NCBI GenBank assembly: GCA_044892505.1
Contig: CM097882.1
Span: 282,100,001-282,164,000 of the forward strand
DNA from: Schmidtea nova
Lineage: Eukaryota
Length of the DNA stretch: 64,000 nt
Direction of reading: 5' to 3'
Every line of letters starts with the position of its first letter. The first letter of the stretch is position 1. A model generated the notes under the pieces. That model saw only the letters and a list, made by a program, of their open reading frames with translations. It did not search any database and was not told where the DNA came from. The translations under genes were made by a program, and so were the position numbers. This document shows, piece after piece, positions 4,575 to 63,233 of the stretch.

Positions 4575-4984
4575 AGATGATAAGATTTATTTAAATAAAG
4601 TTTTATTTATTTTTTTTTTAAATACTTTGTGTTTTTTGTTGTTTTTCTAGTTAATATTACTTTTTATTGTTGAGCGTTAAATTCTGATTATTTATATGTA
4701 AAAGTTCTTGAATTTTAACCATTTTTAACCAAGTAAGGTTTTTTCATGTTAAATTTACCGGAGAAGACCAATTTTTCATGATTTTACTTTTTGACCCTTT
4801 TTTGTTCGCCATTGAATTCCCAGTAGATTGGTATAAAAATTATTTAAATCTGAGCATTTTTGAAGGTTTTGGAAAAATTAATTGAAAAAATTAATTTATT
4901 TCATATTTTTTGTAAAAATTATGAAAAAATAAATAAAAATTAATAAATTACAGTATTACATCATCAATTGCATAAGAATTATTG

Positions 4985-5152
4985 TATTATGTAAGAACAT
5001 TAATTTTCCTGTAAAATTGCGTAATAATTACGTAATGATAAGTAATAATTATGTAACAATCATATGATAGTTTCGTAACAATTACGCAATGATTACGCAT
5101 TAATTGCTTAATGTTTACGTTGTGAATACCTAATAATATAAAGTATTACGTA
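4985..5152. repeat. Cluster of PAR/C-EBP-type bZIP motifs (TTACGTAA, TTATGTAA, TTGCGTAA, TTACGCAA)
   Basis: At least 6 related TTA(C/T)G(C/T)AA-like octamers in about 170 bp. Confidence 0.55.
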
Positions 5153-5399
5153 CCTTTTGTGGGGTGGGTGTGGGGTAAACTGTATAATTAAATGGCTTGG
5201 CCCCGTGTCCTCACTATCCCCTACTAACTACACAAAAAGTTTATTCCACTAGAATGATAACTAAAACTTTCATTTTACTGTATCCGAATTGACTCAGCCT
5301 TGCGAGGACGTGGCATCATACCGAAGGGTCCCGTTGGTATCATATAAAGCCAGGCTCGGTTTCCGGCTCAGTTCCATTTTATAGAGAAAAAACTAACGT

Positions 5400-14500: not shown

Positions 14501-17500
14501 GATAATGTCTTTCATTAGAAATGGGTTTTGAATAAATTGAGATATAAGCACACAATAACGATTTACTTCTTCTGCTCCCAGTAATTTGGCCAATCTAATG
14601 GTCCACCGGATATTCGTATCGTGACTTTGGGATTCAACTGTTGAAGAGACAGGATAATCATTTGGTTCAGAAGCTGAAGATGGATTAAAATATAATGGGC
14701 GACGAGAATTGTTTGAATTTGTTGCGTTTGATGGATTAGTTGCAGTGTCATTATTGTCATTGCTGGAACTTTGTAATTGCTTGAGAATCAGAATAGCTTT
14801 CATTGCACTACTAAATGCTTTACGCAAGTACTCATAAGCGCGATTATCAGGAGACTGTGAATGATATGTCGATTGTTGAGAAGGAGAAGTTTGCTGAACA
14901 ACTGGAGATTGATTCGCATTATTAACATTTGTGGATGGTCCCGAATTTAGGCTCCTAGTAGGATTGTTTGGGAATATATTAATAGGTGATGGGAGAATAT
15001 TAGATCCAGGATGAGGTGGTTGTAATTGATGCTGAGATATAGTAGTTGGTTGGAAAAAGTACATTTGACGATGCTGAATATTTGTAACGTTGGATGGAGC
15101 GATATTAGGCTGTAAGCCCCTGACTGGCATTATTTGAAAATGTGATATGTACGGAGATTGGCAAAGCAAATTAGATGGCAATATTTGAGTTTGAGAAATA
15201 GCATTCTGGCCTGTAATGATATTACTATAGATCCATTCTGAAAATTATTTAATGATAAAATTTCACTGAAATCAAAAAAATATTTAACTAAAAAGTTTGC
15301 TTTTAATACAATATTTTTTAAATCATATTTGATGAATTTTCTTCTTTATAAAAACACTTGACAAGTGAGCAATTAATGAGGTAACAATAGCTGTCGATTT
15401 AACTTATTAATTATTTAAATGATAATTTTTGAAAATAAATTTTATTTATAGGTTCAAAATTGGGTAAACTCTTTGTTAACTCAACCTTTTGAACTACTTA
15501 GTTCCCATAACTTATAAATCAAAGAAATAGCTCATAACTTTTACATGCTTCCATTAGTAGTTAAACTTTCGTAAATAAATTCAGAAATATATGAAAAATA
15601 CAAACTGCTATATAAATACCTCTTGATATATAATATCCTTTATTTCCATTTCATTGATGAGTACTATGTCATCAATGAGCTACCGGCGATTGTTGTTATA
15701 TATCGTTGTTTAGCATTTAAAGGGTTAAATAAGTAAATGTGAGAATATAGGAAAAGAGCAGAGTTTTTGAGTGAAATATTTAGTAGATCTTTACTTGAGG
15801 CCCACAATAGTTTTTCATATTTTGTTATTCTTTATTTCAATATTGTTTACAGGCATGATACCTGTCTATGTGTAGGCAGTGAAGCTAAAAGGTTCTTAGA
15901 CTCGCATAAAAATAAAAAAGTTATAACAAAGTTCTTTTATAATCAAAACAAGATACAAATCAAGGTTATAAATCTATAAATTGTTTTAAGGTTTTAATAT
16001 TTAATTTCAGTTATTCGGCAGTTTAAAAAATGTTTGATGCAGTGGAATTTAGAAGTGTAATTCGGTTTTTACTTTTAAAGTTAGAAAAGAAAGAAATTAT
16101 TCAACAGATTGAAGCAGCATATGGAGAAGAGGCTCTATTAAGAGCAACAAAATATAACTGGATTAGGAAGTTTTCGCCCGATAGAACAAATGATTTTGAC
16201 AATGAAAGAAGTGAAAGACCTGGAAGATGGATTGAAAAATCATTGCAAAATTGAAGGAAATTGTGTCTAAGAATAAGGAAATCACGCAGATAGAGCCACT
16301 GTAAAAACTAAACTTTTGCAAGAGAACAATACAGCTTTGGTTAAATTAATTGGGAATCAAGAAATTATATCAGGTTCGTTCCGCAGAATTTGGTGGCATA
16401 GATGATGGATAGACAAAAAGTTGCTACTAAAAATAATCTTTTTCTACTGGATTGTATCGGACCTAGCTTTCTGACATATATTATGACAGCGAATAAGACT
16501 CTTTTGAGACTCTACATACCCATACTCTAGACGAGAATCTTAAAAGTCGATATTCTTCGGAGAGAAGCCACCAAAGGTAATTTGTTCAAGCACTTCACAT
16601 CGCAAATGAGTCGTTGAGTGCATTTTTGGATGTTAAAGAAGTCTGGAAGAGCGATTTTTCCAACGGCTACATCAACTCGGAGTACTATGCCACTTCGATC
16701 AATAAAGTCAGGGCCATACGATGAAAGCCACGAAACCAAGACCTAAATTTCGCACATCTTATCGAACACAGGAAGCAATAGCAAAATGTGGTTTTGTTCA
16801 GTTGGACTATCTGGTGATTTTAGGTTATTCAATCATCTGGAGAAAGATTTGAGAAGTAAAATAATTGAATCAAAGCATAATTTGTAGGAAGATGAAGAGA
16901 AATGATTTTCAAATCAATGCTGGGCCGTTGGAGAAAGTGCTTCAGTGTTAATGGAAGTTATGTTGAGAAATAAATCCTAAATATTTGTATTGTTGATAAT
17001 AATGAATTTGGTTTCACTAATTTTCTTATTTCTATGTGAGTCTAAGTCTTTAGTTTGAGATAATTTTACGCAGTTTCACAAAAGAATTACACATTATGCA
17101 ACATTCACCTTCTTTATATTTCGACAGGTTTATATTTGGTTTGTTTTAAAGTAACTTCAAGGTTTGTTCTTTCTTCGGCAGGTTGAAGAAATGAAATGGC
17201 TTCTTTCTTGTCAACTATTTATAGAAAATAGTTTTTGATGATAGAAAATTTTCGATGAAGAAAATTTGAGAAACTGATTTAAAAGATTTTAAAATTATAT
17301 TAAAAAACTTTAACAATAAATGGGAAAGAATTTTATGTGAGGCGTTGGTGATTAAATCACAATCCCCTACAATTAATATTCAATCAGCAACGAATTTATT
17401 GAGATTATTTAATTAACTCATTTCTGTTTCCGTATATAGCATTTGATTTAAATTATGATGGCAGACTGATGATGAGGACCATGTCCTTGAAATATATTTC

Positions 17501-27200: not shown

Positions 27201-30200
27201 AAACATAATGTAATAAATGAAGAATATTAATCTTTTACACGAAATTCAAATGGTTTTAACTTTTAACGTTTTAAAAAATTTGTAAATTATAAGTACGGCC
27301 GTACAATACTGCTTGGGAATTTTCACGAGATGTCATTATGTGGTAAACATTTTATATCACACAAACCGCTGTCCTAGCTAGTAAAATGATTACAAAGTGA
27401 AGCTCGTTTACGCGCTCATTTTGTATTGTAGGTCTGATACGCACGAACATATAAAGCGCGTTAACATGATAAAGATGCAGACAATTTTTGTTCCCAATAC
27501 ATTCACTGGCAAAGAAAAATCTACAATATCCAGAAGATTGAATAAAAGATTGTCATCCCCCCTCAAAAAAAAACACGGAAATAGAAATTATGAATTTTAT
27601 TACGACTAATTAAAAAGCTCATCTATATGGTCATTATCATTGATATCTTCCAGTTGAAGAAAAAGGATTTTCTTATCCTTATCTTTTTAATATGCAACTC
27701 TCCGACCAAGAAAAGAATAATTTTTAAACATAGAAACTTAGATTTAAAATATTATATTACATTAAAAATATGATTACATGACGAAATTACACAAGACGAA
27801 ATTACACGAGACGAAATTACACAAGATGAAATTACACGAGACGAAATTACACAAGATGAAATTACACTGAGACGAAATTACACGGGATGAAATTACACAA
27901 GACGAAATTACACTAAAAAATAGTAAAAAATAAAATTATTTTATTATTTATTATTTAATATTAAAATTATTAATATTATTAATATTATTAATTATTAATT
28001 ATTATTAATATTATTAATATTATTATTAATATTATTATTAATATTATTATTATTATCAATAATTCTCATAATGACTATAGATCAAATTTTTTTTATAAAC
28101 AATAACACAATATTTCGGCACAGCCTTTATCAAGTGAAATACACACTTGATAAAGGCTGTGCCGAAATATTGTGTTATTGTTTATAAAAAAATTTGATCT
28201 ATAGTCATTATGAGAATTATTGATAATAATAATAAAAAAAGATCAAAGGTGAAAAAAGATAATTATGATATTNNNNNNNNNNNNNNNNNNNNNNNNNNNN
28301 NNNNNNNNNNNNNNNNNNNNNNNNNNNNNNNNNNNNNNNNNNNNNNNNNNNNNNNNNNNNNNNNNNNNNNNNNNNNNNNNNNNNNNNNNNNNNNNNNNNN
28401 NNNNNNNNNNNNNNNNNNNNNNNNNNNNNNNNNNNNNNNNNNNNNNNNNNNNNNNNNNNNNNNNNAAATTATTATTTATTATTAAAATTATTTTATTATT
28501 TAAAATTTTCAATATATTTAATGCTAAATTTAATACTTAACTTTTACTAATTTTTTTTAAACTTTTTATTAAAACTTTTTACTAATTTTTTTTGAACTTA
28601 CTATTTTTTAGTGTAATTTCGTCTTGTGTAATTTCATCCCGTGTAATTTCGTCTCAGTGTAATTTCGTCTCAGTGTAATTTCATCTTGTGTAATTTCGTC
28701 TCGTGTAATTTCATCTTGTGTAATTTCGTCTCGTGTAATTTCGTCTTGTGTAATTTCGTCTTGTGTAATTTCGTCCTGACACCAAAAATATGAAAGTCAA
28801 GAACATTTTCTAGCACATTTTAAAATGCGTTCCGTAAAAGTAAATATTACAATTCAGTATATTAATGGGAAACAAACGGTAATTTAGATTTCAAATATAA
28901 TTCTTCATGAATTTGCACAGATAATTTCAAAGGAATAATGTGAGGATAAGGGATTAAATTAATAAGGCACTTCAATTGAATAAATCTATAAAATGTAATA
29001 TATATTTTATCCTAGATTTTATCACAAAAAATTTCAACAGCTGTTCATGATCGTAATAAAGCAAAATTAAAAAACATAGGCACTTTCCAAAGACTGAATA
29101 TACTTGAAGATTAAATAAATACGAAAACTAATCAGGAGGAATCACAAATATCAAGACTTAATCTAGTTTTAATGGGTATTTCACATTGTATTAGTAATCT
29201 CAGTAAAATACATATTTCTTTGGCGCTCTATAATGAACCAATGATATACGAACAATATTTTAAAATTAAATTCAATTATAACAAAGAATTACCTGCTGAA
29301 TATGGAAGTGTTTGATTCTTTAAATGAAGCGCAATTTCCGTAAGTAATGATCGAAAATTTGGTACATAATCACGCCATTTTACTTGTTGTGCTTGCACGA
29401 TCATGTCGATTTCCAATTGGATCATGCTCACTTCTAGGTGCCGATAAGGGGCCGGCGGTCTTGGCAGTTGGAGGGCAAATATTAATAAATGGAAAGCAAC
29501 TTCGATTAATCGGGCTTTAGAAGGCATCATTTGACGTTGAGGAGGTGAGATTTTTGACCAGTCAATAGATTCATTTACAAGACAGTTAATCAAGAATTGC
29601 ATTCGCTTCATTAAAGTTCTTGACTGTTAAATTAAAATTTTATTTTTAATATTAAAATTATTTTTATATTAAACAATATCAATAATTATTATCAAACGTA
29701 AATGTAAGATAAAGTGACGATTCCAGCTTTCAAGGTCATCAAATATAGTTTAATTGAATACATATGAATTTTAATAATTATTTTATTTTGTTGCTTTTAT
29801 TATTTAATTATTAATTAATTAATTTAAAAATTAATTTTAATAAAATAATCAGTTAATAAAAGGAAAAAATAAAATATATATATATATTAATTAAAAAATA
29901 AATAATGTAAAGTAATAAAATAAAAATTATTAAATAAATAAAATAATTAATTAATAAAAGCAATAAAATAAAGAAATAAAATAAAGAAACAATAATTTAA
30001 AAAATAAATAATATAAAGAGAAGATTTTTTTTTAATTACACGAATTTTCGGCACAGCCTTTTTTAAGTATGTACACTTACAACTCTCGATCAAGAAATAA
30101 TTAAAAATTTTAAATTATTTTATTGTCAAAAAAATTATCAACAAACTAGGTCAAATTCACAATTAACGGGCTGGAAAATTAACTTAAAATTATTGGATGC

Positions 30201-34075: not shown

Positions 34076-34137
<62 letters not shown>

Positions 34138-35243
34138 CAATAATTCCCATAATGGATGACCATAGATCAAAATTTCCTTAAATATTGTGTACTTATTTAA
34201 GGAAATTTTGATCTATAGTCATCCATTATGGGAATTATTGATAATAATATTAAAAAAGATCAAAGGTGAAATAAAAACAAAAAGATAATTATGATTATAT
34301 ATATTCATTTTTGAAGTAACTTGAAGTCGCATTATTATATTTACTTTTAGTTAATTCTTATTTCAATTGCTTTCTTTTTAAAATTTCAAAACAAATTTCT
34401 GAATTATAAACCGAATTCTGCTTTAGGGATAACTGATAAAAATTTTAATTTATTTATGATCATGTATGATATATTATTTTTGCTTCAAATAAAGCGTAAT
34501 TGCTAATAAATAAATTATAGAGTACACAGTTTTTCCCATTATACAATCAGCAAGTTGATAAGTTCTCAATTGAGAAATAACTGAATACATATTGTAAAAT
34601 ATAATAAAATGTAATACGTCATTTTAACTCGGGGAATTATAATTATTATTAATAAAGAGATTATTTCATATCGTCACTAGAAAAGTGAAATTGAAAGAAT
34701 GAGTCATATTTTTATGATGAGATTTTTAAGGAATTACTTTAAAATAAATTTTAAAATATTATTAGATTCTAGCAGTCAATTCTTGTATGTTTTCTAGTTA
34801 TCAATAATGTAAATTTATTATTCGGTAATGTGTATTAAAAATTTATTTTTAATATAATATATAATATAATATATAATATTTAAAAAATTAAATCATACGT
34901 CAGTTTCATTAAAGTGTTCTTTAACATTGTCAAGGATTGATGCACCAACGACATTTGGTTCACTAACAAACTCAGAATAATTGTCACCGAGTGCAGTTGA
35001 GTCCGGTTCGGTATTATTCTTGTTGTGGCTGCCACTGTCATAGTCGATCTCACAGTCGTCAATACTGGACGAGTTGCTGCTGTCGAGTGTATTGTTACTT
35101 TTTAAATCAAAACTATTCATTAAATCTCCATTTTCCATGTTATTAACATAAATTTCATCAATTTGTTCGGTTTTAATTGATTCGTCCACAGATTGTGTAC
35201 TCATTTCAAATTTATTTTGCAAAGTCATGCAAATTCTACAAAA

Positions 35244-44200: not shown

Positions 44201-47200
44201 GGATGTAAAAATAATTTCTTCGGGTCTGACTCGTTCAAGAGTTGGTAACGCTGTAGTAGATCAATAAATTTGTGGATACGTTTAATTTATTTTTAATTAT
44301 AATTGCCATTTGAGAAAAAAGTCTAAATAAAAGATTTTACTGATAACTGTTTGAATTAAATAATCATTTAAATCCTTTAACTGATAACTGTCATTTGTAA
44401 ATTGAAAGATGTTCTATATTTATTACAGTAGGTCGTTATTTTAATACGCATACTAAATAAATATCTGTAACACTTTTGAGACGGCTTTCGAATACACGAG
44501 TTAAAGTTAAATTTTAAAGTAGTTTCTTTATTAAATATGGCAATAAATTTCAGCTTTAAATAAGGGATTGGGCTAGTATAAAATACAAACTGTTACATAT
44601 TTTAACCGAGTTCAGTGTAATTTCAAGCTTCTAGTATGTGTACCAGTCGTCTCTCAAAAAGATTAAAGAGTGACTCGTTCAATAAACAATTAAAGCAAGA
44701 CCTTGAGTTAGGCAAATTGATATTTTTCTCAGAGGTCACGTAGCTGTTTACCTGATCGTAGTGTTGTTACTAGACATCTCATTTAGTAAAATCTATTTTT
44801 TATTTTTCATTCCAGAAAACTTCTAAATTGCAAGGAATTTTTATTTATTGAAAAATATTCACAATCTTATTTAATGTTTTGTTCTACTCCAAGGCCTCAT
44901 TTAACACATTTTCAGTTTTATTGTTAATACAATTTATGTTATTAGTTTCCAGCTATTTGATTAGTTGTTTCGTCGACATCAATATTTACTCAGCTCCAAA
45001 ATAAACAAAGATACATAAACGAATAAATATTCTTGTATTTCACTTTGTATGGTGATTTTACTTTATATTTTTTGATATTGGCATAATTTGTCACGAAATA
45101 AAATTGTATGATATCAATTTTAAATATAAATTTTCAAGTAATATAATTTTAGTATTAAGGATAAAATTCTTAAAAATTGAGATCATGCCATCAACCAATC
45201 CTGAAGCTCCTAATCTATCACCATACAGATTTTAATATTAATATTTAAGATATTCCAACAATTTCTCAATACTGTGACGAATATGTGCTGTTTAATGCTC
45301 CAAGAAATATGAAGGCGATTGATATAAATGACCCAAGGGAAAAGTTTCCGAGAAAAACTCAACTGTCGACATCTGAAGAAAACTAGCTGCGGCAGACTTA
45401 TCTCTACCTACAATCGACCAGAGATCTTTGAACATGTCTAACACCAACCAGATAAGAATCGATTATCACTCAATGATTGAATACTGCCAATTTCGGTCTT
45501 AAACTGGACCCTATCTTTCCACCATTAAACATATTTCACCAAGAACGCTTTCATATTTTCAAGGCATATTTATCGTCATATCGACATACATAAACCAAAA
45601 TTATAATTATCTTTTTGTTTCACCTTTGATCTTTTTTATTATTAATATCAATAATTCCCATAATAGATGACTATAGATCAAAATTATTTTATAAACAATA
45701 ACACAATATTTCGGCACAGCCTTTATCAAGTGTGTATACATACTTGATAAAGGCTGTGCCGAAATATTGTGTACTTATTTAAAGAAATTTTGATCTATAG
45801 TCATCCATTATGGGAATTATTGATATTAATAATAAACCAAAATTAAAATATTATATTTTCCAGCAAATGCGTAATATTTAGCATATTTTTGGAAATTTTA
45901 TTATTGACAATCCTACTAAGCGTCACTTGTCGAAATAAATTTGATTCACATTTAAGTGCGTTTACCGTATACATATGTCAAGTAGAAGTGTTCCTATGGT
46001 GTGTTTGACGTACGGGTGAAAAGAAATTACCATTTTCTATGAAAATTCAAAACCTATTGGTTTGTTTGACCTGTGTTTGACTTATATATACGTCATCGCC
46101 AATTTTAATTACTCGCCCAGAAATACATTTTTGAAAATAAACTACTTGCTTAACTGGTTAATCACTAATTTACCGATTTAAGTATATAAAATAAGACAGT
46201 TGAAATAAAATTTAAATTCGATTTGAAATTAAAATTAGAAATAGGAAAAACTAACATTTATGAAAAATTTGATTGCAAAATTGGTAAACTTAGATTAAAA
46301 TATAATAACTAAAATGATGTTTAGAATAAAAAAATTTTAATTATACAAGTTTTTTGCCGATAGATGCACAGAATGAGATGACTTTTCTATGAAAATTTAA
46401 CGATATATTTCATTTGACACATTATACATATATTATGTCATTATTGATCCCACGTAAACTGGCGAGAAAACGTTCATAAAAACCTTCAATGAATCAAATC
46501 AGATAAATAATAACAGAAATTCTCTCTACATTGGATTAGAGCTAATTTTACACTTAATGTGTCGCTTTTTGACAACGAAATCCATGATTAATCGCTAAGT
46601 TTTAAATTGAAATATTTAATTGATGCTATATATTGTTAAAATTTAGAAAACAACGTAAATTAATCAAGAAAATAGGCTTATTATTAAATAATTTTAAAAA
46701 CGAATTTTTAAGCAAAATTTTTAAAGATAATTTATTACATAATAATTGTATAATGTTATTAAAAACGAATCATTATAAATTATAAGATGAAAAACGATAA
46801 TGAAAGAAAATATTAAATAAGAAAATTTTATTTATTTTTAACCACCAAATGTTAACAATTAATATGAGCTTTCGACAGACAAAAAAATCTGCAAAATATT
46901 AAAGATATTATGATTGAATGAAAAATCATAATTCTAATATACTGTAGAAATGCTAATTCTGTGGTACAGCAATCGTTTGCCATTTCGCGCTTCGAATTTT
47001 ACGGCTTCACTCTATTGTGATCTTTTTTCAAATATATATTCTAATCACAGTACATTATCAACACAATGCTCACGAGAATTGTATGCATATAATATTGGGT
47101 ATAATAGTGACTTGGTGGGTTTAATTTCATGTTAATACCCTTATTTAAAGTGTCTTAAAAATGTTTTCTACGTTCTGACTACGAAAATCTTCGATTTATT

Positions 47201-49810: not shown

Positions 49811-51228
49811 GATTTAATGACTTATAAATATAGCTTCTCGCCATAAACTGCAGCTGTCTTATTTAAGGCATTCAAACAAACGTTCTAAATCTAAGTTAAT
49901 TTTATAAATTATTAAGAAGGATTTTACTGTATTTTTACGTTTTTAAATAAAATTAATTTGTTTTCAATTAATTTAATTATTTTTATTTATAGAAATGATT
50001 TTTGGATATAAACTTGTGATAATTCAATTTTTTAGAAACTAATAATTATTTGTTGATTTTGAAATATAATTCATTTTTAATTTTATATACATTGATAATA
50101 TATACTTTAGCGTATAATTAAAGTTGTTTTTATAAATCAAGGCATTTTTATTATTTTGACTACTGATAACAAGTTTAAAAAGATTATTTCTAGAATATGG
50201 AAATGATGGTAGTGCTGATGTTTTGTAGGTGGTTTAATAATCAGACTTTAATACTTCTTTTGAAACACATAAAAACTAATTCCCTACTGTTGCCATCCGT
50301 TGCTTGGCAACGTTGGTACTGTACCAAGGGGTTGAATGTGTCTGCAAAATGTGAGCTGCATCTTCGCGACTGCTAATGCCCTGGCAATTCATTAGGTCCA
50401 AGTACCACAGATAGAAGGTTATTTTTACTTTTTATTCTGGACCCATCATGTATCTAATTTATCCTTACTTTCCAAATATCTTTGAATAGAAAATAATTAT
50501 GATATACTCTAATAGAAACATTTATATTTAAATGTTTCTTTCTTTTAGAATTTATTTACACTCTTCCTCAGCCTAATTACTGTTAGACAAAAATGGAATT
50601 CTTTTTAAATAACCTGGTAATACAGTATGTAGAGAGGGCGCACAAAGTGAACTTAAAATGTGATTGAGAAAAACACCAAGTAAAACACAGTAATAACAAA
50701 ACACATGAAATAATTAATTAAAATCAATTAAAATGAACAAAAGCGCATTAGGTATACATGTTAAAAATACACGCAGAACATAAAACACTAATTATGCAAT
50801 AAAATAACAAACTCGGAAAAATTAACATATTGCTGGTTTATTGGTGTTATTTACAACGGAGATTCTAGTTGATATTAAATGTCAGGGTAATCTCGCCAAC
50901 ATAAACACGCTTTCCCCGCTGATACCCATGATGTGTCCCTAACTACTCATCATGTTGGTACTGTATCAATATTGTGAAATGATGAGGCAGGTGAGCAACC
51001 TTGCGGCTACTATTCCTTCATTTATTCACGGGTCCACCACTACCAATAGAAGGTTTATGTGGATTTTTTACGGCCCCAATTGATCTATACGATTGATCTA
51101 TACGAATTGATCTATCCCTGGCCTCCAAATGAATCGCGTATATTATTAATTTGCTCAATCACTCACTTATTTCATCACACATTACTCGCCAATCCACAAC
51201 AAAAACAAGACCTTCGAACATAATACAT

Positions 51229-52490
51229 TTATTTCCCTAAAAACATGGTTGGATTTATAATGTTGATTAGCTGCCTCTCAGATAAGCCACTGAGTAGATC
51301 AACTTCGATACCAAGCCTTTCTGCATACGCCCTTCTCTCTCGTCGACGTTTAGCCACAAGACGGTTCCTTTTCTCTGTCCTCGTCAGCTTAACCTGGGCC
51401 GGTTGTGCGGTCGATGTCTCTCTTTCGTGTGTCGTACTAACGACCTCCTCTGTCTGCGTCGCCATATTCGTATTAGTGGGGGTTACCCATCTATCAAACG
51501 GACTCACTCGGATCAGTGGTTTCAACTGTCCTTCGAAAAACTTTCGATTCGATGCCCGTAAGTAATTATTCAATTCCAGCCTGGCAGCGGCTGTTTCTCG
51601 AGCCTGCTCCTCCAGCGCTCTTTCTGCTCGATACCGACGCTGCTGTATCTCTTTCACTTTTTCGGGATCGAACCATGTTTTATTTAGGGTATCAATTTCC
51701 ACTGTTTGACGACTTATATGTCGCTCTAAGAGTGTATTCGTCTCTGCAATTGTCGCTGATTGTCCGTATCTACGTCTTTCAGTACTCGATCCATCTACAA
51801 TTTATATGGATATTATACAGGCTATATCGGTTTTACAAGACAGCTCCTACTCAACGCGCGATTCCCTTTTTATCATACCTCTTGGTCACTACATTTATCA
51901 TTCATCCATTCATTCCACATCAGTCAACATCAATTTTCGTCCAAGTTTACCCAATCTTGATTACATGGGCTTTCTGGTTTTCGAATACCAATTGGATAGA
52001 AGTACTCATCGTTCGGTTTCCAACATACCCGGTCCTGGTGGATAAAGATCTCTCAGAGTTGAAGGCTTGGCAGCTAATTTGCCTGATTTGCACATATACC
52101 CCAAGGTGAATTTGTGTACGGCCTGCGCTCTTCTGTCTGGACATCCCTCGGTTGGTCCAATAGAACAAATCCTAATCTTTGTAGAACATGTCCCGGAATT
52201 GACATGAAACTAATCATCCAACGAGGTGTGCCAATTTGATCCTCCAGTTGCAGGAACCATTTCCGTGATGACATTGATATGGATGGTCCTGACGGCGGCT
52301 ATTGAGCATCTCCTTCCCATCGAATATTAATTGTGTACGAGTCATTTCTCGCATTGGCCGTTAGATTACTATGGCTCCGTTTAAGATATCGTAGGCATCG
52401 TTCGGCTCGTGCTTTTATCAATGGGGGTATCCGTGAGGTTTCTCTCGGCTTCCGAATCTTTTGGGCTACAGATTTCTTTGATGTTGTCAT
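51229..52490 (-). pseudogene. Degenerate long ORF of unknown function
   Basis: ORFs 52299-52490 and 52074-52274 plus downstream sequence share one frame with scattered stops. A frameshift leads into the frame of ORF 51229-51702 (basic, coiled-coil-rich). Confidence 0.5.
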
Positions 52491-53735
52491 CTCTACAACG
52501 ATTAATACGCATTAGTTCCATCATGATCTCCCTTCACGTCAACTTTCGGAAATACCTCAGCTCACCCTGTATCTTGCTGGCGCACTGACTACCTTTGGAC
52601 ACAACATTCAATCATCTCAATCGTCCCTTCATTCATACCACATTATATCACCCGGTCAACATTTCGTCACGCATTCCATTGAACATCCTGTTTCCCACTT
52701 TACCATTCGTCTCGTCGTTATGCTTTCGCACTCACCATCGTCACAACATCATCTCCTCATTGTATTAATGCTAATCGTTATGCCTTCAAACATCGTTCAT
52801 GCCGTGCTGATTGTTTTGTTATTAGTTGTGATGAAACTTTATTTCGGTATCGATCTATCAAAACTCAATTCAGGCATTCGTTCGCAATTCGTACCACATC
52901 ACCAGCAATCATATTCAATCATGTCTCCTCACATGTATTTTGAGTATGTACTCATTTCTGTCAAGAACGTAATTCACTTGGTCTTTGTGTAGAAATCAGC
53001 ATTAGAACGTTTTCTGCTAGTTGTATCTCTGGTGCGTGTGATTCTAACCTCTGCATGCAAAGAATCGTTACTATCCCTACCTGGAACTCATGCTCCTCAC
53101 CGATGCTCTCAGTAGATTCAACATTCATCTTCAATCATCTCTATGAGCATCCCTCCCATATCGTTTAGTCGCATTGATCTACGCCGCATCAGTCAACCCC
53201 GGTAAGGTGCTGTCTGAGAGGCCCAAATCTCCTGTCAGGTACGATGACTTTCGGGATGTCCTATTCATTTTAGTTATCATGAGGGTTTAATATGAAATCA
53301 CAATAATAAACACTTACACACCTTTATTACCAATCCTTCAATAGGTTTACAATTTACTTCCAAGTTTGATACAAAATAACTTTCAAGGTTCAGATCGTTG
53401 TCAATAAAAATTACCACTTGGTAAAAATGACTGACTGCACTGAATTTGGCTGCCGTATTTATACTTGTTTTTGCCGCCGGCCAACCAATCAGATTTCAGG
53501 GTGTGTGTGAGTTTGTCATTGATTTCATTTTCAATACCCACCATTACGTTTTTAATCTGATGAGTTTGTCTGTCGATGCGTAACATTTTTTCACTAATAT
53601 TTATTTTAGTTTTGTTGTATTCTTTGCACCGCTCACCCCCGCGTTGTTATCTTAAGTAACTTAGTGTTTCACTTGTCAGATTTATGTCATTTGTCTATCT
53701 GGTTACTTCTCGGGTGTTCTACTCTCGTCTCAGCC

Positions 53736-54041
53736 ATGCTCGGCAATTTTGTTTTGCATGGTTGGTTTTGTGCTGGTAAGTTTTATTACTCACCATTATT
53801 AATGTTATTTTATTTCAGGCTTTACTGCTCTCCAATTTATCGGTGGTAATTTTATTACTGTCGGTACATTTGATTGCTGACATATTTTTGACAGCTCTCA
53901 TTATCGTTCTGTTGGTTGCTATCTATTTCGTTCCGGTTCGGTGGTAAGTTATGTATTTTATTACCGCTTTATTATTACGTAATTTGTTTCAGGCTCGTTA
54001 CATTTACTGCGTTCTGCTTGTTATTGATGTACCGGTTGTAA
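53736..54041 (+). CDS. Four-exon micro-gene encoding a 54-aa highly hydrophobic peptide, antisense to the retroelement
   Basis: Exons 53736-53775, 53819-53845, 53895-53943 and 53993-54041. Introns of 43, 49 and 49 nt have GTAAGT/GTAATT donors and TTTCAG/GACAG acceptors. Spliced frame: MLGNFVLHGWFCAGFTALQFIGALIIVLLVAIYFVPVRWLVTFTAFCLLLMYRL*. CCAATCAG upstream at 53485. Confidence 0.55.
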
Positions 54042-54486
54042 TTTAGATTTTTCTTTATTTATTTGTTTTTAATATTTATTTTCTTGTTTTTAAATTGATT
54101 TGCCTGGCCCAACATCACTGGGGGTCCCCTTAAAGTTGCGTCCCTCAATTACATACATGCACTTACGTCAAAATACATAAAAAGTTCGTGACAGAGTTCA
54201 CATGCAAAACCACATAAGGTGGTTTTGATATTTCTCCAGTTGATATTTCTCTATCAGTCGTTCGCGTTGTCGTACTTCGTAAAACTGACATGCCATCACG
54301 TCGTTTAATTCTATGGTTCTTCGTTCTAATTCCCCTTCGCATTTCCTTTTGATTTCTCTTTCTACTGCTTCTTGTTCGGTTATTGATTCGTTTCTCGATT
54401 CCTCGTCCGTTATAAGTTCGTTTACGTTTTCCATTATTGACGATTTTTACACTTTATTTACAGGGTCATTCACTCCACTACTCCAA

Positions 54487-55890
54487 TTATCCTTTCGTTG
54501 ACTTCTTATTCAACATTGTCGTGCTTGTTTTCTTTTCGACCTCCAACTCCACATATAGGATGTCGTCGTACAACATTTCCCATTTTTTACTTTGTACGGT
54601 GAATTTTGGTTCTCCTGTTGACAATGAACATTTTGTGGTTGGTCTTTTGTAAGCTTCGTGCTTCCCATTGATTTTGAATATTCTCACTATCGTTTCTCTC
54701 GAGTTTTTGATCTTCAACGTCGTCCTTGCTTTTAATGGCCATTCCAATATGTCGTCGTATCCACCTTTGCACAACGCAAAGAATAATGACACATGCGTTT
54801 CTTTTCCTGGTCCATCTCTATTTGGATAAATTCTCATTCTGACTTTGTATCCATTTTTCCACAGATAGAATGGTGGACTTGTCACTGACATTTGTCTTCC
54901 TGTTTATGCTGCTGTGAACTTATCATTGAAGTTCGTGATTTTCCACACGTATGGTGCAACAGGTAGGCTTTTTATGTCTTTCACATATCGAATCCATATC
55001 CAATGTCGTACATTTTCCCTTTGCCAAGTTCTCTATGACTGTGATTTTCTCCATCATTTTCTCTCTGGTGAGCTCGAATTGCTCTCTGGTTTCCAGCAAT
55101 AGTTCCGTCATTATCCTTTGGGATTCTATTTCCTTTTCCAACTTCTGTATTGTTTGTTCCATTTTGCTCACATTCTCTGTCAACATCTCCACGTGTTGTA
55201 CAGTTTCCGTTTCTAAATGTTCTTTCATCTCTTTGCTTGTTTTCTTTACTTAGCATCCCTGTTTACTCCATACACACTTTCTTGGTTTCGATTCACACTG
55301 CTCCCAAAGTTTTCCGTAGTATCACTTCCTCTGGGATTCCACAAATGTTTGGACATCTACCTCTGAATTTTTCACACACCTTCTCTCCTGATACGTTGAG
55401 GTGCTCTGTTTTGATTATTTCTCTCATTTCTCTTTATTCGCAATGTTGACACTCTACTATTTCTGCCTTGCACTCCTTCTTGTGATTTTCCAACTGTTTG
55501 ATGGTTGTCGTCTGTTGACATTTTTCGCATATTGTTTTCTTGTTCTCGCATTTCTCCAGATGTTGTCTCAATTCGATTATTTGTCCCTTCCATTCGCATG
55601 GTTGATTTATAAACTTCGTTTTTATCTTCCAGATCTCCTTTTGGATTGCTTTGTCTGGTTTCATTTCATTGATCAGTAGTTTATCGTCAAATTCTGGACA
55701 CTTCCTTGTCCCACCTTTATTGATTATTTGCAATATACATTTTGTGCACATTCTGCATCCACACTCTGCTTGTCTCGGCTTCAACAACAAGTTTTTACAC
55801 TTTACACATATTACGGTTAATCCCAATTGTCGATTCTCTCTACGCAAACTTTCGATTGTTTGGTAATCTGCTTCACTTTCTGCTCTTATT
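54487..55890 (-). pseudogene. Intronless TRAF-like coding region (RING, TRAF Zn fingers, coiled coil, MATH), interrupted by stops and frameshifts
   Basis: CVKCKNLLLKPRQAECGCRMCTKC; CEWKGQIIELRQHLEKC; CVWSKQGC..EMKEHLE..QHVEML; PYVWKITNF; SPPFY..GYKVRMRIYPNRDG.GKETHVSLFFAL.KG.YD.IL.WP. Confidence 0.9.
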
Positions 55891-56621
55891 CTACAATTTT
55901 AATTCTACAATGATATTTACATCAAGCTTTCATATTTCTGATTTTTCTGGTTTCGTTTTATACACATATATACAATTTCCCGCTTTATTTCACTACACAT
56001 CTTCAGTCGAGCCTGGCTCTGGATATACGTCTATCTCATTTACAATCCAGTTTGTCCAACTATCTGGTATCTCTTCCACTTCTTGTATCGTTAGCCGATT
56101 AATCTCTTCTGCTTGCCAGTCGTTTACTTCTTTTAGCATCTGATTTTCATTCTGTAATTCATTTATCTGCTGTTGTTGAATCTCAATTTTGTTCATCGCT
56201 TCAAAATTGCAGTTGTAACTCTCGGTTAGTAATTGCGTCTTCACCGTCAATTGGCTTCGTAATTCATTTACAGTTCTGGCTAGCATGTCACATTGCACTT
56301 TCTATCTAGTCATCATGGATATTTCTGAAGTTTCTTGGTTCATCGTTTTTCTGGATTATATGCATCATTCTCTTTTTCTCGTTTTTACGTTTTATAATAT
56401 TTATACCCATACGTATACGGTTATGCATTGATTTTTACATTACTATTTACACGCATATTCCTCCCTCTATACAACTGTTACTGGTTTTCCTTCATAACGC
56501 TTCTCGTCTTCGATTTGTTCCCACATTTCTTTGCATTTCGATCTTCTTCTAAGTTCTTCTCGTACTTTCTTTGGTAGCTCCATGCTGTAATTCATGACCT
56601 TTACATCTGGCCATTGCACTG

Positions 56622-58400
56622 TTATAGTCTAATTCTCATGCCATACATCCAACATACTACCATAATCGTTATTAGTGGTATACACGCTATGAATACTCCC
56701 ATGCTAATCAATCCCATTACTCTTTTGCCAATACTCATTTCTTTTGTTTTGCTTTGATTTATCATTACACCATATTGACTTTTCCATTCAACTTTCCATT
56801 GTTCGTATAGTTGCTGTCTCTGTCTGATTTCTTCGATCACTTTCTCAGGTTTCCATCTTTCTTGACGATTTGGTATTGTTTCTTCGGTCTCTATTCGTTC
56901 TCTCATCTGACTCAATTCTCTGAATTCTAGTCTTCTGATTCTTCCTTTTATCATCGTATTTCTTGACGTATAATAGGTTTCGAACTTTTCTTGTTGGTTT
57001 CCTTGTGCATCTACTGCTTCTATTGCACAGACTTCGTATTCTGCATTTGTTTTTAACTTCTCCATTTTGACTTCTATAATTCCTTCTTTTCCGCTTCTCG
57101 TTGTCCTCTGACAATTTCTTGGAGACTTTCCCACGTTATTTGGCATTAGTTGCCAATATATTTCTAAGACTTTCTTATGGATCTTCCATATTATCAGAGT
57201 TGTCGATTCTGGTTTAACTTCTTTTTCCGTTGTTACCTCATTCATCGTTGTCTGTTGAGTTCGTTAGTTACTAGTTATAGTAGTCCTTCTTGACTCCTTT
57301 CTTTTCGGTGGACTTCTCATTTCAATTATTCTCGTTCCGTTGATTCTCTCTGGTGTCTTGTACAATTTGCACTCTAGGCTTCTTTGTATTATTTCTCTTC
57401 TTCTTCTGATTACACAAATTTCGTATGTCTGTCCGACTTCGAATCCGTCTAGTTGAAATGGGATTCCTGGTTCTCTCGTTTTACATTGTGGTATTATGCC
57501 GCTGGTTGATAGTCCGATATATTTTCTCCAACACATTCCTATCGTCCTTGGGCTGACGTTTTTTATTTCTACTGTCACTACTTCGTTTGCTCTCGCTTCT
57601 TTGTTTTGCTTCTGTCTTTTCGGAAACTCGATTGTCTCCTTTGGTTTAAACACTTTACACTCGCTCGTTCCTGGTCTGTTTCCGTTTGTTGCCTTTTCCA
57701 CGAGACATAGTTCACATACTTTATCATCTCCATTTCGGTTATTTCGATCGCTTTATTTGTCTCTGCCTTTCGACTTTCTTTAGTTTCGCTGAACCCAATT
57801 ACTTCATTGTTTCTTCCCCAACATCTTCCGTCCGTTGTTCGTTTGTCTTTGATGTTAACAAACGTCATCACGCTGATATCTATTTCTTTCTCGATCCTCT
57901 TAATTAGGATTAGTATTAATGCTACGCATATCAATTCTGGTTGAAATGTTAAATTCCCCGCTGGACTTTTAGCTGCCCTTTCTTTCTCTGTTTGGTTTCC
58001 GGTTACCTCTTCCGCTTCGATTTGATTCGTTCGTCTTTCTGGTTCTACTTCTGTTTTTTTCGTTGTCTCTTTATTTCTTTTCCCAATGCCGTTTTGTATT
58101 TTCAGCGCTCTCGTTGCTTTGTACAATTGACATGCCGTTACTTGAGGTGCTTTTGGTTTTCCTCTCTGATTTACTGCGCATATTATGTATGACTTTTCTT
58201 TCTCCAATCCTTTGATTTGGATGACGTCTCGTTTCAAATCAGACAATATACACTTCAGCGGTTCTTTCTTCTTCATATTCTCTTTCCAGCATATTCGTTC
58301 GCGCATTTCATCTCTTCTGATGATTTCCAACTTGGCATATTGTTTCTCTGCTTCGCCTTGTCCGATGAGTGTTATTAATTTTGCGAGGCATAACATTTCT
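56622..58400 (-). pseudogene. Four FN3-like modules followed by a transmembrane helix
   Basis: Repeated motif: IKGLEKEKSYIICAV; ITEMEMIKY(E)LCLV (frameshifted); LDGFEVGQTYEICVI; MEKLKTNAEYEVCAI. Hydrophobic GLISMGVFIACIPLITIMVVCWMYGM near 56640-56718. Confidence 0.55.
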
Positions 58401-59512
58401 GGTCTTAAAAGTAGACTCCCTGTTCGTTTCCCATAGTTTGTGCATTCATCCTTTGTTCTATAGTTTGCTCGTTCCTCGGCTTCTCCTTTCTTGTCGTTTC
58501 TCGTTGGTTTCTGTTCTTCTAGATTTTCTTTTTTATCGTATTCTGTTTTTCCTTTATCGTTGTCTCCGCCGTTATTCTTGTCGTCGTCATTTTTATCGCC
58601 ACCTTTGTCGTCGTAATCTCTGTAACCACCCCCTGGTCCTTTCAAAATGTCGTCCTCGACATTGATCTCTTTTATCATTCTTTCATACACTTGAAGTGCG
58701 AGTGTGCTAAACTCAAATTCTCGTATTTCTGTGTCTTTGGGTGGTTCTGTATTCTCTCGTTTACATTGCTTGATTGTTTCTGTAGCATTTGCCCATGAAT
58801 TTATATACATTCTGAATAAGTCCATCCATCTTCCTGTTCGTTCATGTTCCTTTGTATTATTCGTAAATCTCAGATCACTTCTTTTCATGAACTCCTCTAC
58901 TATCTCTGACTTTTTGTGTCTTAGTAACGTGCTTCTGATACACCAATTCTGATTTTGTTCCATATGGCCATTAATCTTGAATACCGGTTTTTTTGTGACT
59001 GGATTTATCCATGTCAACAACGCTGTTGTATTCTCGAGGTCGTGTATCATCACCACTAGACTGAATTTTCCCCCGTTATTTGCCAGATATTCGATCTCAT
59101 CTTGCTTCTTGATTGATTTTATGAAGTTTATCATTTCGAAGTTATTCCACTGTATCGCTATATCCAAGATGGAGTTATTCTTCCCATTCTTTCCTTCGAC
59201 CTTGGCTCCTGCTTTGTATAATTTATTCAACACTTTCCGCTTCGTCTTTTTCCTTGCTGCAATTATCATAATCGTATCTCCGTTGTCATCAGTCGTATTC
59301 ATATCTGCTTCACATTTGACTATTATTTTCGCAACTTCTATAGCCTCATTGTCTTTCTTTCGACGTAATGCCCAGTGTATCGGCAATCTTCCATCTTTTG
59401 GTAGTAGAACTTCCACTGGCATTTGACTTTTGATCGTTGTTATATCGCTTTCGTTATATTCTCCTTGTGCATATATGTGCACTTTCTCTGTAATTGATCC
59501 CAATATCTCCAA
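57578..59512 (-). pseudogene. Ankyrin-repeat cluster 2 and downstream cargo (644-aa segment of polyprotein)
   Basis: DGRLPIHWA..; ADMNTTDDNGDTIMIIAA; GAKVEGKNGKNNSILDIA. Confidence 0.8.
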
Positions 59513-59796
59513 AGAGTTTTTATTCTACTTGAATTCTGGTATACTTTCTTGTGCCTTTGCCACTATTGCTTCTAATTTCTCTTGATAATCCGCTTTTGCA
59601 TTAAACAACACTGCTTTGCTCCTAATTCGTGTTTGCATCTGTTTCATTCGCTGATCCTGATATACTGCTTGTCTGAAGAATTGTCCGTATTTCAATGCTT
59701 TCACCAGATCCTTGTATCGTTGGCGTATTTTTTATGTTTCTTTTGGATATCGTAGAAATGTTCGAAACTCATATCCGGATTCCACTGTTTGTCGTA

Positions 59797-60924
59797 CTAT
59801 TTCTTGATTAATCCGAATAATTCCTTCTTCCTGTCTTCCAGTCTGTATTCTTTAGGGTTTTCACTGACTCGTAATATATCTCTTGATATCAAGACCGCGA
59901 GTGTTTTTGGATCATATGGTACTTCTAGTAGATGTTTCAGTAACGCATTTTCTTCATACGTAAACACTTCGTTACAATCTACTACCCATGAGTCTCCTTC
60001 CGGTCGTTTCCACTTCAACAACATTCTCCAGGTTTTACTGTTGCTTACGCTGATTGCTTGTCTCATGATTGGACCTCTGGATAATTCATCGATCTCCCAC
60101 GTGGCATTTTTCGTGATATACTTAAGTATTCGGTGATTTGCTCTATCGATTGCATGAATAAAGAACGTTCGTCCTTCTTTATCTCTCGTTGTCCAATTTG
60201 ATCTGGTGTTCCCAAATAATTCGACTATTTCCTTGTTTCTCCCGTGAATCGTTATCATCATGAGTGGGGTAATTCCTTCCCAATTTACTTTGTCGATTTC
60301 TCCTCCACCTTCGAGTGTTATCTCGATGATTTCTTTTACTTTTTCGTTTCCGCTGTGCTTGATTGCGTTATGCAGCACTGTGTTACCGTCTTTATCCTGT
60401 AGACTCAATGTTTGTGGGATCTCTTCTAGAAGCGTTCTTGTCATTGGATGCGCTGATCTGTCTTTCGCATATTCCATTACGTTTTTCCGCACTTCTGTCA
60501 GTAGGTCGAAATCATGCCACCATTTCCATTCCGGTACTATCTCTCTGGTCTTCTTTGCCAGTTCCTTGATATCTACTGTTTTTCTTCGGTTGTCTTCTAA
60601 ACTTGTTTGCGGCTTTTGTTGTACTCGCAACATATTAATTCTTGCCGTTTGTGATCTCGTCATCACTCGTTTCTCTGGTAGTAAAGTTGCGGTCTTTGGT
60701 ATTTTCTTGCATCGACATGCGTTTACATAAATTGGTCTCACCAATGAATTGTTTACTAGTCTCACCCGTACATTATTCTCGTTGACCGTTGTTATTTCGT
60801 ACGGCCCTTTGCCTGGTCGTTGCAGTTTCTTGACTGTACCGGGTATTATTTCCGGTGTCTCAATTATCACCCAATCTCCAATTTTTAGCTCAAGTGCCTT
60901 CACATTTCTCTTCTGATCATGCAA
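59797..60924 (-). pseudogene. Integrase C-terminus (GPY) fused to ankyrin-repeat cluster 1
   Basis: LKIGDWV..KKLQRPGKGPYEI, then DKDGNTVLHNA, NWEGITPLMM, DKEGRTFFIHA. In frame with integrase ORF 60979-61392 across a single TAA. Confidence 0.85.
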
Positions 60925-60978
60925 GTCCTTGTAACTCTCTTGGTAGAATTTGATATTGAGTTCTGCCGTTTTCCAGAT

Positions 60979-62141
60979 TTATTGCATTCTTTCTTTGAAC
61001 TTTGTAACATAATCGTCAACCTCCATGTAATGCGATAATGGCGGTTGGTATTCCAAGTCAATTGGTAGGTTGCAATCTCTTCCGTACATTAATCGGAATG
61101 GACTTAGCTTCGCCGCCGCATGTATTGACATTCGATATGCCATTAAACACAAGTTAATATATTCGTCCCAGTTTGTTTGATGTCTACTCACATAATTTGA
61201 TAGCATGCGTATCAATGTTCCATTGAACCTTTCTGTTTGACCGTTCGTTTGTTGATGGTATGGGGATGTTCGCAATTTCACAATTCGGAAGTAATTCGTA
61301 ACTTCATCCAATATCTTACTCATGAAATTCGTTCCTTGATCCGTTAGGATTTTCTTTGGTGTTCCGTATCTGCAGCATATCTCTTCCACCAATATTCTCG
61401 CGACTGTTTTTGCTTTTTAGTCTGGTATTGCGAATGCTTCTGGGAACTTCGTCAGATAGTCCGTGACTACTAATATGTACTGATTTCCTTTTAGACTTTC
61501 TGGTAATGGTCCAACTACATCCATCGCTATCGTCTACATTGGTTCTGCATTGATTGGCATTGGCTTTAATGGTGTTTTCCACTTCGTTCCGGTGTTTTTT
61601 CTTGTCGCACAGATTAGGTAATTCTTTATCCACTCCTTTACGTCATCTTCCATGGTTGGCCAAAAATACTTTGTCTTAGTCTCACGATTGTCTTTTTTGC
61701 TGACATATGTCCACCTAATTTTCCGTCGTGGTACTGAGTCATGATCTCTTTTCTTCTATTTGCAGGTAAGCACATCAATCTCCGTTCTCCATTCTGTATT
61801 AACAACCATCCTTTTTCCATCACGTATCTGTGTTGATACTTCTGCATATGTTCGCGTAATACTTGGTTCTTGCTGAATATTTCCATATCCTTTTACTTGA
61901 TGATCAGTCCCAACTCGCCATCTTCAAGTTGATCTTTCTTTAGCTCTTTGAAGTCCAAATCTTCGACTATTAGCACGCATATCTTGGGAGCATCCAGATT
62001 TACCAACTCTGGGAATGTGAATCTTGACATGCAATCTGCGTTTGCGTTCGCTTTTCCTGCTTTGAACTTTATGAATGGCGAGTATTCTTGTAATTGCATC
62101 GCCCAACGCATCAATCTACTTGATGATGCTGGTTCTACCCC
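60979..62141 (-). pseudogene. Gypsy pol remnant: RNase H end plus integrase
   Basis: ORFs 61893-62207 (retroelement part up to about 62141), 61638-61886 and 60979-61392 carry canonical Gypsy RH and IN motifs with stops and frameshifts. Confidence 0.92.
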
Positions 62142-62647
62142 AAAAGGCAAACAGACAAAAGGCCGACACGAACACAAGGCCGACAGACAAAAGGCCGACA
62201 CGGACAAAAGGCAGACAAATAAAAGAACACTTGTAATAGCAAAAACTATTAAATAAAATCGGGGGATTCCTGGAAAATCTTTGATTTAGAATTTGATTTA
62301 GAGAATTCTAAATCAAAAACTTTCCAGGAATCCCCCGATTTTATTTAATAGTTTTTGCTATTACAACTGGGTTTTTTTGTTAAAAAAATGGGTTTTTGTT
62401 AAAGAGGTAATTATTATTTTAATTAGTTTAATGAAACGAAACATATATTTATATTTATTTATTTATTTTCCTTCATGGAATAGCTCACAATTTAAATTAT
62501 TTCTAATTTGTAATTAAATTTTTTATAGAACAAAGTATTTATAGCTAATTTTTATTTATTTTTTTTTATCCGTAAATATTCTGCCTTTTGTCCGTGTCGG
62601 CCTTTTGTCCATGTCGGCCTTTTGACCATGACGGCCTTTAATCCGTA
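62141..62647. mobile_element. MITE/foldback element with 15-bp tandem units (GGACAAAAGGCCGAC) as inverted ends, enclosing a hairpin; abuts the truncated pol
   Basis: Left array 62141-62214 and right reverse array 62579-62647. Internal hairpin at 62231-62366 with about 63-bp arms. Confidence 0.8.
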
Positions 62648-63233
62648 TACGTTGTAATTTCTTAATACTCATTTTATTGTTTTTATCTGAGAAAACTAAA
62701 GATTATCGATAATGCTATATATTTTTTTGGGTTATTATTATTATTATTATTAATATTATTGGCGGACACAGGATAACCCGGCCTTTTATTATTATTTTCA
62801 TGTTGGCAAATATGCCTGTAAAATGATTTTAAAAATAATAAATTAGAAATCATAAAAAAATTCAAAATTGAAATTATAATAAAATCAATCGTGATTTTAT
62901 TATTTAGATATGAATTTATAGTTGAATGGGAATGTGATTGTTTTTTTGTATCTAAAACAGTAAATAATGATAAAACAATAAGAATTACAGGTTTCTATTC
63001 TAGAAAGAATAAAGATTCCTATAATATGTAGTAAAACTCAGTAAGATGGTTTAGTTGAAAGGATATGCCAATTTTAAAAGAAAATCAATAAAATATTATT
63101 GTTGATCAAGTCTAAATCGGCTGATCAAGTTCAATATTCAGAATGTTATGTACGGGTGAGCTAAAGTTAAATTTTCTATAAAAGTTTATTGATTTTTTAT
63201 AATTTTTAGATTTCAATTCAGAAACTGTAGTTC

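Follow-up and report, generated by a model that had tools for sequence, protein, structure and literature searches.

A stretch of 64,000 nucleotides from Schmidtea nova (contig CM097882.1, positions 282,100,001 to 282,164,000 of the forward strand, here called the window) has, on its plus strand, a series of short segments that resemble introns. The initial annotation read the region at 53485..54041 as an antisense micro-exon gene for a tiny, viroporin-like membrane peptide, sitting in a Gypsy element. The question raised by this locus is whether these introns serve a gene for such a peptide and, if they do not, what a retroelement might be doing with them.

The region was located within its element by comparing copies across the genome. 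Copies lose their match to the window at position 54114 and near 50830, which sets both borders of a 3' LTR of 3284 bp (50831..54114, minus strand) with TG...CA edge letters. Target duplications of 4 bp were found at two of the three both-ended solo LTR copies examined. Since the annotated region falls inside these borders, it is the U3 of the 3' LTR. A PPT-like site, common to the families called Y and Z below, adjoins the LTR (54115..54131, minus strand), and next to it is a truncated internal region with stops (54132..62130, minus strand). Minus-strand ORF pieces from 54487 to 61416 in this region match the Pfam families of integrase, ankyrin repeats, TRAF RING and MATH. The element is decayed, and of the LTR, PPT and protease-RT-RNase H-integrase features the window has the integrase, the PPT and the 3' LTR alone.

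The nearest internal relatives of the window copy are 82-84% identical to it, and most of them form a young sister family, Y, in which the LTR pairs are 98.9-100% identical in nine of nine elements examined. Compared with family Y, the window copy is missing about 1.65 kb near 54230. Family Y has LTRs, a PPT and the order protease, RT, RNase H, integrase, and its polyprotein runs from a Gag knuckle through a mononegavirus-type fusion domain, protease, RT, RNase H and integrase to ankyrins. The fusion domain (PF24664, E 4e-68) lies in frame between Gag and protease. Open frames reach about 5,090 aa in family Y and about 5,140 aa in family Z, and the length from LTR to LTR is 24-26 kb. Burro, or GYPSM1, elements are giant gypsy-like elements of planarians (PMC6431247). 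As far as that source's available text describes them, the shared features are a length of about 25-30 kb, a single polyprotein of about 5,080-5,140 aa, MATH/TRAF cargo, a Gag zinc knuckle, a fusion protein between Gag and protease, RT, RNase H, integrase and ankyrins. The ankyrin and MATH/TRAF cargo found here is what is expected of a Burro-like Ty3/gypsy element; no Pfam matches to BCL2, BIR or dUTPase were found among the ORFs scanned. Judged by the published description of Burro, the sequence of the window element matches a Burro-like Ty3/gypsy element, which bears out both the Gypsy assignment and the antisense orientation of the annotated introns.

Several other features of the element and its surroundings were observed. 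The extra 1.65 kb of family Y was considered as an antisense gene and rejected, as the segment has sense ORFs. One is a coiled-coil-like frame of 396 codons at the 3' end of the internal region; another, of about 170 codons, has a signal-like start and a hydrophobic segment and is under purifying selection. In the R-U5 part of the window LTR there is a sense frame of 190 codons (51229-51801, minus strand) in which a basic region weakly resembles bZIP (E 0.007, below cut-off), and related frames occur in family Y LTRs. At the end of the polyprotein region (56622-57752, minus strand) two frames look by eye like fibronectin-type repeats, with no Pfam match, and are followed by a hydrophobic segment. 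The nearest internal relative of the window copy (L037, 2900-3000) has a deletion that starts just past the TATA box and removed U3 and PPT. The window also holds inverted-repeat elements at 27776-28778, 34077-34301, 45593-45836 and 62140-62650, one with 15-nt subterminal arrays and one starting at the truncation point of the retroelement. A host exon with a match to the C-terminus of ZSWIM4-8 lies at 14093-15244 (minus strand), with short minus-strand introns nearby.

The CCAAT box that opens the annotated region (53485..53489) belongs to a conserved LTR promoter core, as seen in the sequence and in the copies. A TATA box for the sense promoter (53456..53463, minus strand) lies 21 nt away from it in reverse orientation. 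The sense start, at the U3/R border, is predicted at the initiator-like word TCAGTC (53429..53434, minus strand), 31 nt from the TATA box in the sense direction. The TATA-CCAAT core occurs 2043 times in the genome, and a control pattern occurs twice. The idea that the CCAAT box is a private promoter of a peptide gene was rejected, as it is tied to a sense TATA box in those 2043 places. Within 53456-53487 of the window, the TATA word is TATA-like in both directions, and in three families the first A of CCAAT is 31-33 nt from the TATA box on the antisense side. As a speculation, one TBP site might serve both directions.

The exon-intron layout proposed for the peptide gene is present as described: CCAAT at 53485, exons of 40, 27, 49 and 49 nt, and three GT-AG introns with phases 1, 1 and 2. 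They join into an open frame of 54 codons (53736..54041, plus strand) with a GRAVY of 1.73 in the window copy. Among the other copies of this LTR type the frame falls apart. The complete ORF is found in one of 48 copies, the window itself. Of 46 copies, 16 have the ATG, and a stop stands at codon 10 in 21 of 45. The exons vary in length: 19 copies have 27 nt and 15 have 29 nt in exon 2, and exon 3 measures 49 nt in 17 copies, 50 nt in 12, and 54, 62 or 63 nt in four copies each, so the frame shifts between copies. Variation over the three codon positions is flat (0.26, 0.22, 0.28), with no third-position pattern, and the stop codon overlaps a splice donor. The window U3 is also a mosaic of two subfamilies, its first part being 84% A-like and 35% B-like, and its last part 59% A-like and 72% B-like.

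The hydrophobicity of the frame is what its composition gives by chance. The initial annotation had cautioned that a T-rich strand yields hydrophobic codons by chance, and this caveat accounts for the frame: T makes up 45% and A 12% of the spliced exons. When the exon letters were shuffled 20,000 times, 55% of the shuffles stayed open for 53 codons, 91% had a 19-residue window of at least 1.6, and 9% reached the same GRAVY. The two likely transmembrane segments are hydrophobic in the window copy, as claimed, but do not exceed compositional chance. A signal-like extension proposed upstream has no Met in its 42 open codons, and it is in frame solely through a 1-nt insertion that is absent from every other aligned copy. 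Viroporins such as Vpu and M2 are short and hydrophobic; the window frame is likewise, but it is unconserved and its hydrophobicity is at chance level. Some points do favour a gene of this kind, spliced from the antisense strand and encoding a membrane peptide of 54 residues with two helices: in the window copy the frame is open and hydrophobic, three subfamily B copies have 55 open codons from a GTG in the same outer frame, and there is a weak synonymous excess (38 vs 69, p=0.056), alongside five shared changes to stops. No synonymous excess was found in any frame of exons 0 and 1 of subfamilies A and B (omega 0.64-1.39), and the same method gave an omega of 0.12-0.47 for a true sense ORF of the sister family, used as a positive control. 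We consider such a gene highly improbable and reject the peptide as a chance reading of the window copy only. T-rich antisense micro-exons can thus yield membrane peptides that are convincing and yet false.

The introns themselves are another matter, and the copies show them to be more extensive than had been noticed. The initial annotation had missed the LTR location, the reverse TATA box and two further intron-like segments at 53580..53609 and 54038..54093. All of the following lie on the plus strand. Segment 0 (53580..53609) is 30 nt in the window copy, which is probably too short for an intron; among 21 subfamily A copies it measures 39-40 nt in nine and 30-31 nt in ten. Predicted antisense exon 1 (53610..53775), which contains the unconserved ATG at 53736, is followed by intron 1 (53776..53818, GT-AG, 43 nt), with donor GTGAGT in 21 of 48 copies and GTAAGT in 20. 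After predicted exon 2 (53819..53845, 27 nt) comes intron 2 (53846..53894, GT-AG, 49 nt), with GTAATT in 41 and TGACAG in 40 of the 48. Predicted exon 3 (53895..53943, 49 nt) leads to intron 3 (53944..53992, GT-AG, 49 nt), with GTAAGT in 30, GTAATT in 7 and TTTCAG in 35 of the 48. Predicted exon 4 (53993..54037) is 45 nt here and 47-48 nt in subfamily A. Intron 4 (54038..54093, 56 nt) has the donor that overlaps the stop codon of the 54-codon frame; its acceptor is AA in the window copy and AG in 37 of 39 copies. The predicted last exon starts at 54094, and its first part (54094..54114) continues out of the LTR. The last acceptor lies inside the LTR edge by 21 or 27 nt in copies of the window type and by 27 nt in family Y.

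The three introns of the window exceed chance: two of them pass a conservative filter, and 7 of 2000 dinucleotide shuffles do as well. Conservation was then read from the copies of the window LTR type, called W. Eighty-nine loci yielded 52 distinct copies of this type, and 48 were analysed after a truncated one and three whose exons are laid out differently had been set aside. Seven splice dinucleotides are kept in 88-96% of these copies (92% overall), so the splice sites are conserved where the frame is not. The 26 other GT and AG dinucleotides are kept in 67% on average, giving a splice-site excess of p=0.015, although the copies share ancestry and such p-values are therefore optimistic. The common variants at the splice sites are themselves valid signals, GTAAGT or GTGAGT and TTTCAG or TTTTAG. 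Intron interiors in the 48 copies were no more variable than exons.

Family Y repeats the pattern in another sequence. Its U3 has no BLAST similarity to the window U3, yet it has three antisense introns, of 47-49, 50 and 61 nt, in all 41 distinct copies (from 46 of 48 loci kept). The splice GT and AG are kept in 95-100% of copies, with a splice-site excess that is not significant in this family (p=0.09-0.10). Variable sites make up 40 of 122 positions in intron interiors and 42 of 215 in exons (p=0.008), and the exons are shifted by 1 nt in 12 copies and by 2 nt in 9.

The pattern extends over other families and is confined to one strand. Antisense chains of one to four introns were found in seven of seven family representatives, the sense strand had chains in none of the seven, and none of 71 internal tiles of equal T-richness had one. 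A broader sample comprised 64 U3s anchored on the promoter core: the initial 30 in order of position, and 34 picked for distinct spacers from the first 100 listed. These fall into 16 clusters, of which 10 have antisense introns. One unselected representative per cluster gave 14 antisense introns in total, where 1.9 were expected and 1000 shuffles gave at most 7; the sense strand of the same 16 representatives had none. Across clusters the introns are 36-63 nt long and start 25-100 nt from the promoter core. Judged by the spacing of HMM matches, host myosin introns measure about 50-60 nt and have similarly weak donors, and short planarian introns are reported to peak at 45-85 nt (PMC13594981, partial text).

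The largest cluster, 21 of the 64 U3s, shares the promoter core and has one intron call in its 21 copies, so the train is dispensable. In its members (L202, L206, L213 and 18 more) the U3 is mostly 320-370 nt, nearly pure A/T, with hardly any splice signals. In family Z (L109 and L110, around 4800-5200), a tandem duplication of about 200 nt in the U3 repeats one antisense intron-like unit, and introns might be gained by such duplication. A family Y U3 motif recurs in at least 13 tandem copies, 1295 nt apart, at G000:C1:114176944-114192500.

Two kinds of material were searched for traces of splicing. No intron-less DNA copies were seen in the 15 inspected of 31 W motif matches, or as retrocopies among 321 family Y motif matches. 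Runs X1-X4, from one study and of unspecified kind, contained no joint at any predicted intron of the window U3 or the family Y LTR. Their contigs crossed the introns into the flanks and were DNA-like, and were counted neither for nor against splicing.

Introns on the sense strand of a retroelement are purged at reverse transcription, and antisense introns survive. The reading that we prefer, and to which we give about an even chance, is that the U3 intron train of Burro-like elements makes up the 5' end of an antisense RNA, spliced and non-coding, which restrains or tunes the element. Antisense transcription by RNA polymerase II would begin at the TATA-CCAAT core or ahead of it, given that family Z has its first donor about 25 nt past CCAAT. 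LTRs are often bidirectional promoters (PMC10186651, partial text). As many as five short introns would be removed by the host spliceosome, with the last exon exiting the LTR. From a 3' LTR, the RNA would be complementary to the cargo genes; the first AATAAA beyond it is 1.4 kb away in family Y and 2.4 kb in family Z, inside those genes. An RNA started in a 5' or solo LTR would instead terminate in host DNA, where the first AATAAA lies 27-1528 nt from 5' LTRs. Neither a shared antisense ORF nor shared further introns were found past the LTR edge. Promoter-proximal introns may stabilise an RNA that would otherwise be degraded. The regulatory step, which is the least certain, could be promoter interference or small-RNA silencing. 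Planarian transposon piRNAs are reported to be mostly antisense (PMC8532177, partial text).

Other explanations would make the RNA itself less important. The act of splicing may be what matters, with antisense transcription and splicing beside the TATA box boosting the sense promoter in cis, so that the element gains promoter-proximal introns that it could not keep on its own strand. This fits exons whose sequence, length and number are free while the splice sites are kept, and introns that begin so near the promoter core; activation in cis through the splicing of a nearby lncRNA has been described (bioRxiv 10.1101/050948, partial text). That precedent is mammalian, however, the effect is here a prediction from sequence, and an abundant cluster does without the train, all of which leaves the cis effect doubtful. 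The segments may instead be unspliced or relics, either A/T-rich U3 stretches whose sense-strand factor sites mimic splice signals or a host leader that was captured once and is now drifting. Sub-lineages have indeed lost sites (the intron-0 acceptor is absent in 11 of 23 subfamily B copies and donor 4 is lost in 7 W copies), some introns are very short (intron 1 of subfamily A is only 33-35 nt, below the reported host peak), the intron interiors of W are fairly conserved, and introns 1 and 3 are tandemly similar. Against this, many mutually unalignable U3s have donors and acceptors in pairs spaced as in host introns, and the changes keep the splice consensus. We regard unspliced or relic segments as no better a prospect than the cis effect, that is, unlikely.

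The train could also be the leader of some other antisense coding sequence, be it a set of tiny ORFs upstream or one located within the element. Family Y has a 20-codon ATG ORF across intron 1 that is kept in 38 of 41 copies, with an omega of 0.24 (p=0.049 uncorrected among 21 tests, not significant once corrected). However, the W and Z families showed no counterpart, and antisense ATG ORFs of at least 60 codons past the LTR differ between two Y copies, which have three and none. A coding leader is therefore very improbable, if slightly less so than the membrane peptide. A further proposal, which we put forward only tentatively, is that Burro-like elements evolved an antisense micro-exon train with a purely structural role and repeatedly rebuild it in U3s that cannot be aligned. 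Its splicing would license the LTR promoter or shield it from surveillance of intron-less RNA, with LTRs acting as outward promoters.

Antisense RNA from LTRs has several known forms. As far as their partly available sources describe them, bovine leukaemia virus AS1 and AS2 (PMC4855707) are the nearest, being antisense, LTR-initiated, spliced, lncRNA-like and fused to host DNA; the RNA here is predicted from sequence, and exon 1 of the BLV transcripts makes a single splice to a far acceptor in place of up to five short introns within U3. The conserved antisense splice sites that mark this type of lncRNA were found here, though not in every cluster. HTLV-1 hbz (PMC10186651) is also antisense, LTR-initiated and spliced; here there is no conserved protein, the host is an invertebrate and transcription is predicted. 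Grande gene23, RIRE2, Retand and Boty (PMC7264820) likewise have opposite-strand features that survive reverse transcription, but theirs lie between pol and the 3' LTR and are protein genes under conservation, and those described here are inside the LTR and fail coding tests. The non-coding antisense RNAs of Drosophila micropia and the bidirectional LTRs of IAP, cited in the same review, are likewise cases of non-coding antisense RNA from an LTR element with a proposed regulatory role, and the available portion of the review mentions no multi-intron U3 leader. Unlike the Burro description, in the portion of it available (PMC6431247), the present one includes antisense introns in the LTR.

Antisense LTR transcription is thus known, and the U3 intron train is probably a new form of LTR antisense RNA. 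Grohme 2018 is said to mention an antisense-transcribed segment in Burro-1, which may bear on its novelty. In a literature search beyond Grohme 2018 and its supplements, no account turned up of a non-coding train of several introns that is restricted to U3 and recurs across many LTR families.

If the tentative proposal of a structural train is true, the intron train would circumvent the rule that retroelements cannot retain introns. If the train is spliced, sister families that carry it and others that lack it, all with one promoter core in common, would form a natural experiment on whether splicing itself favours or restrains a retroelement. Splicing would also predict many LTR-host chimeric RNAs in a group used as a model of regeneration. 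If LTRs do act as outward promoters, many hundreds of them would give neighbouring host DNA a ready spliced leader.
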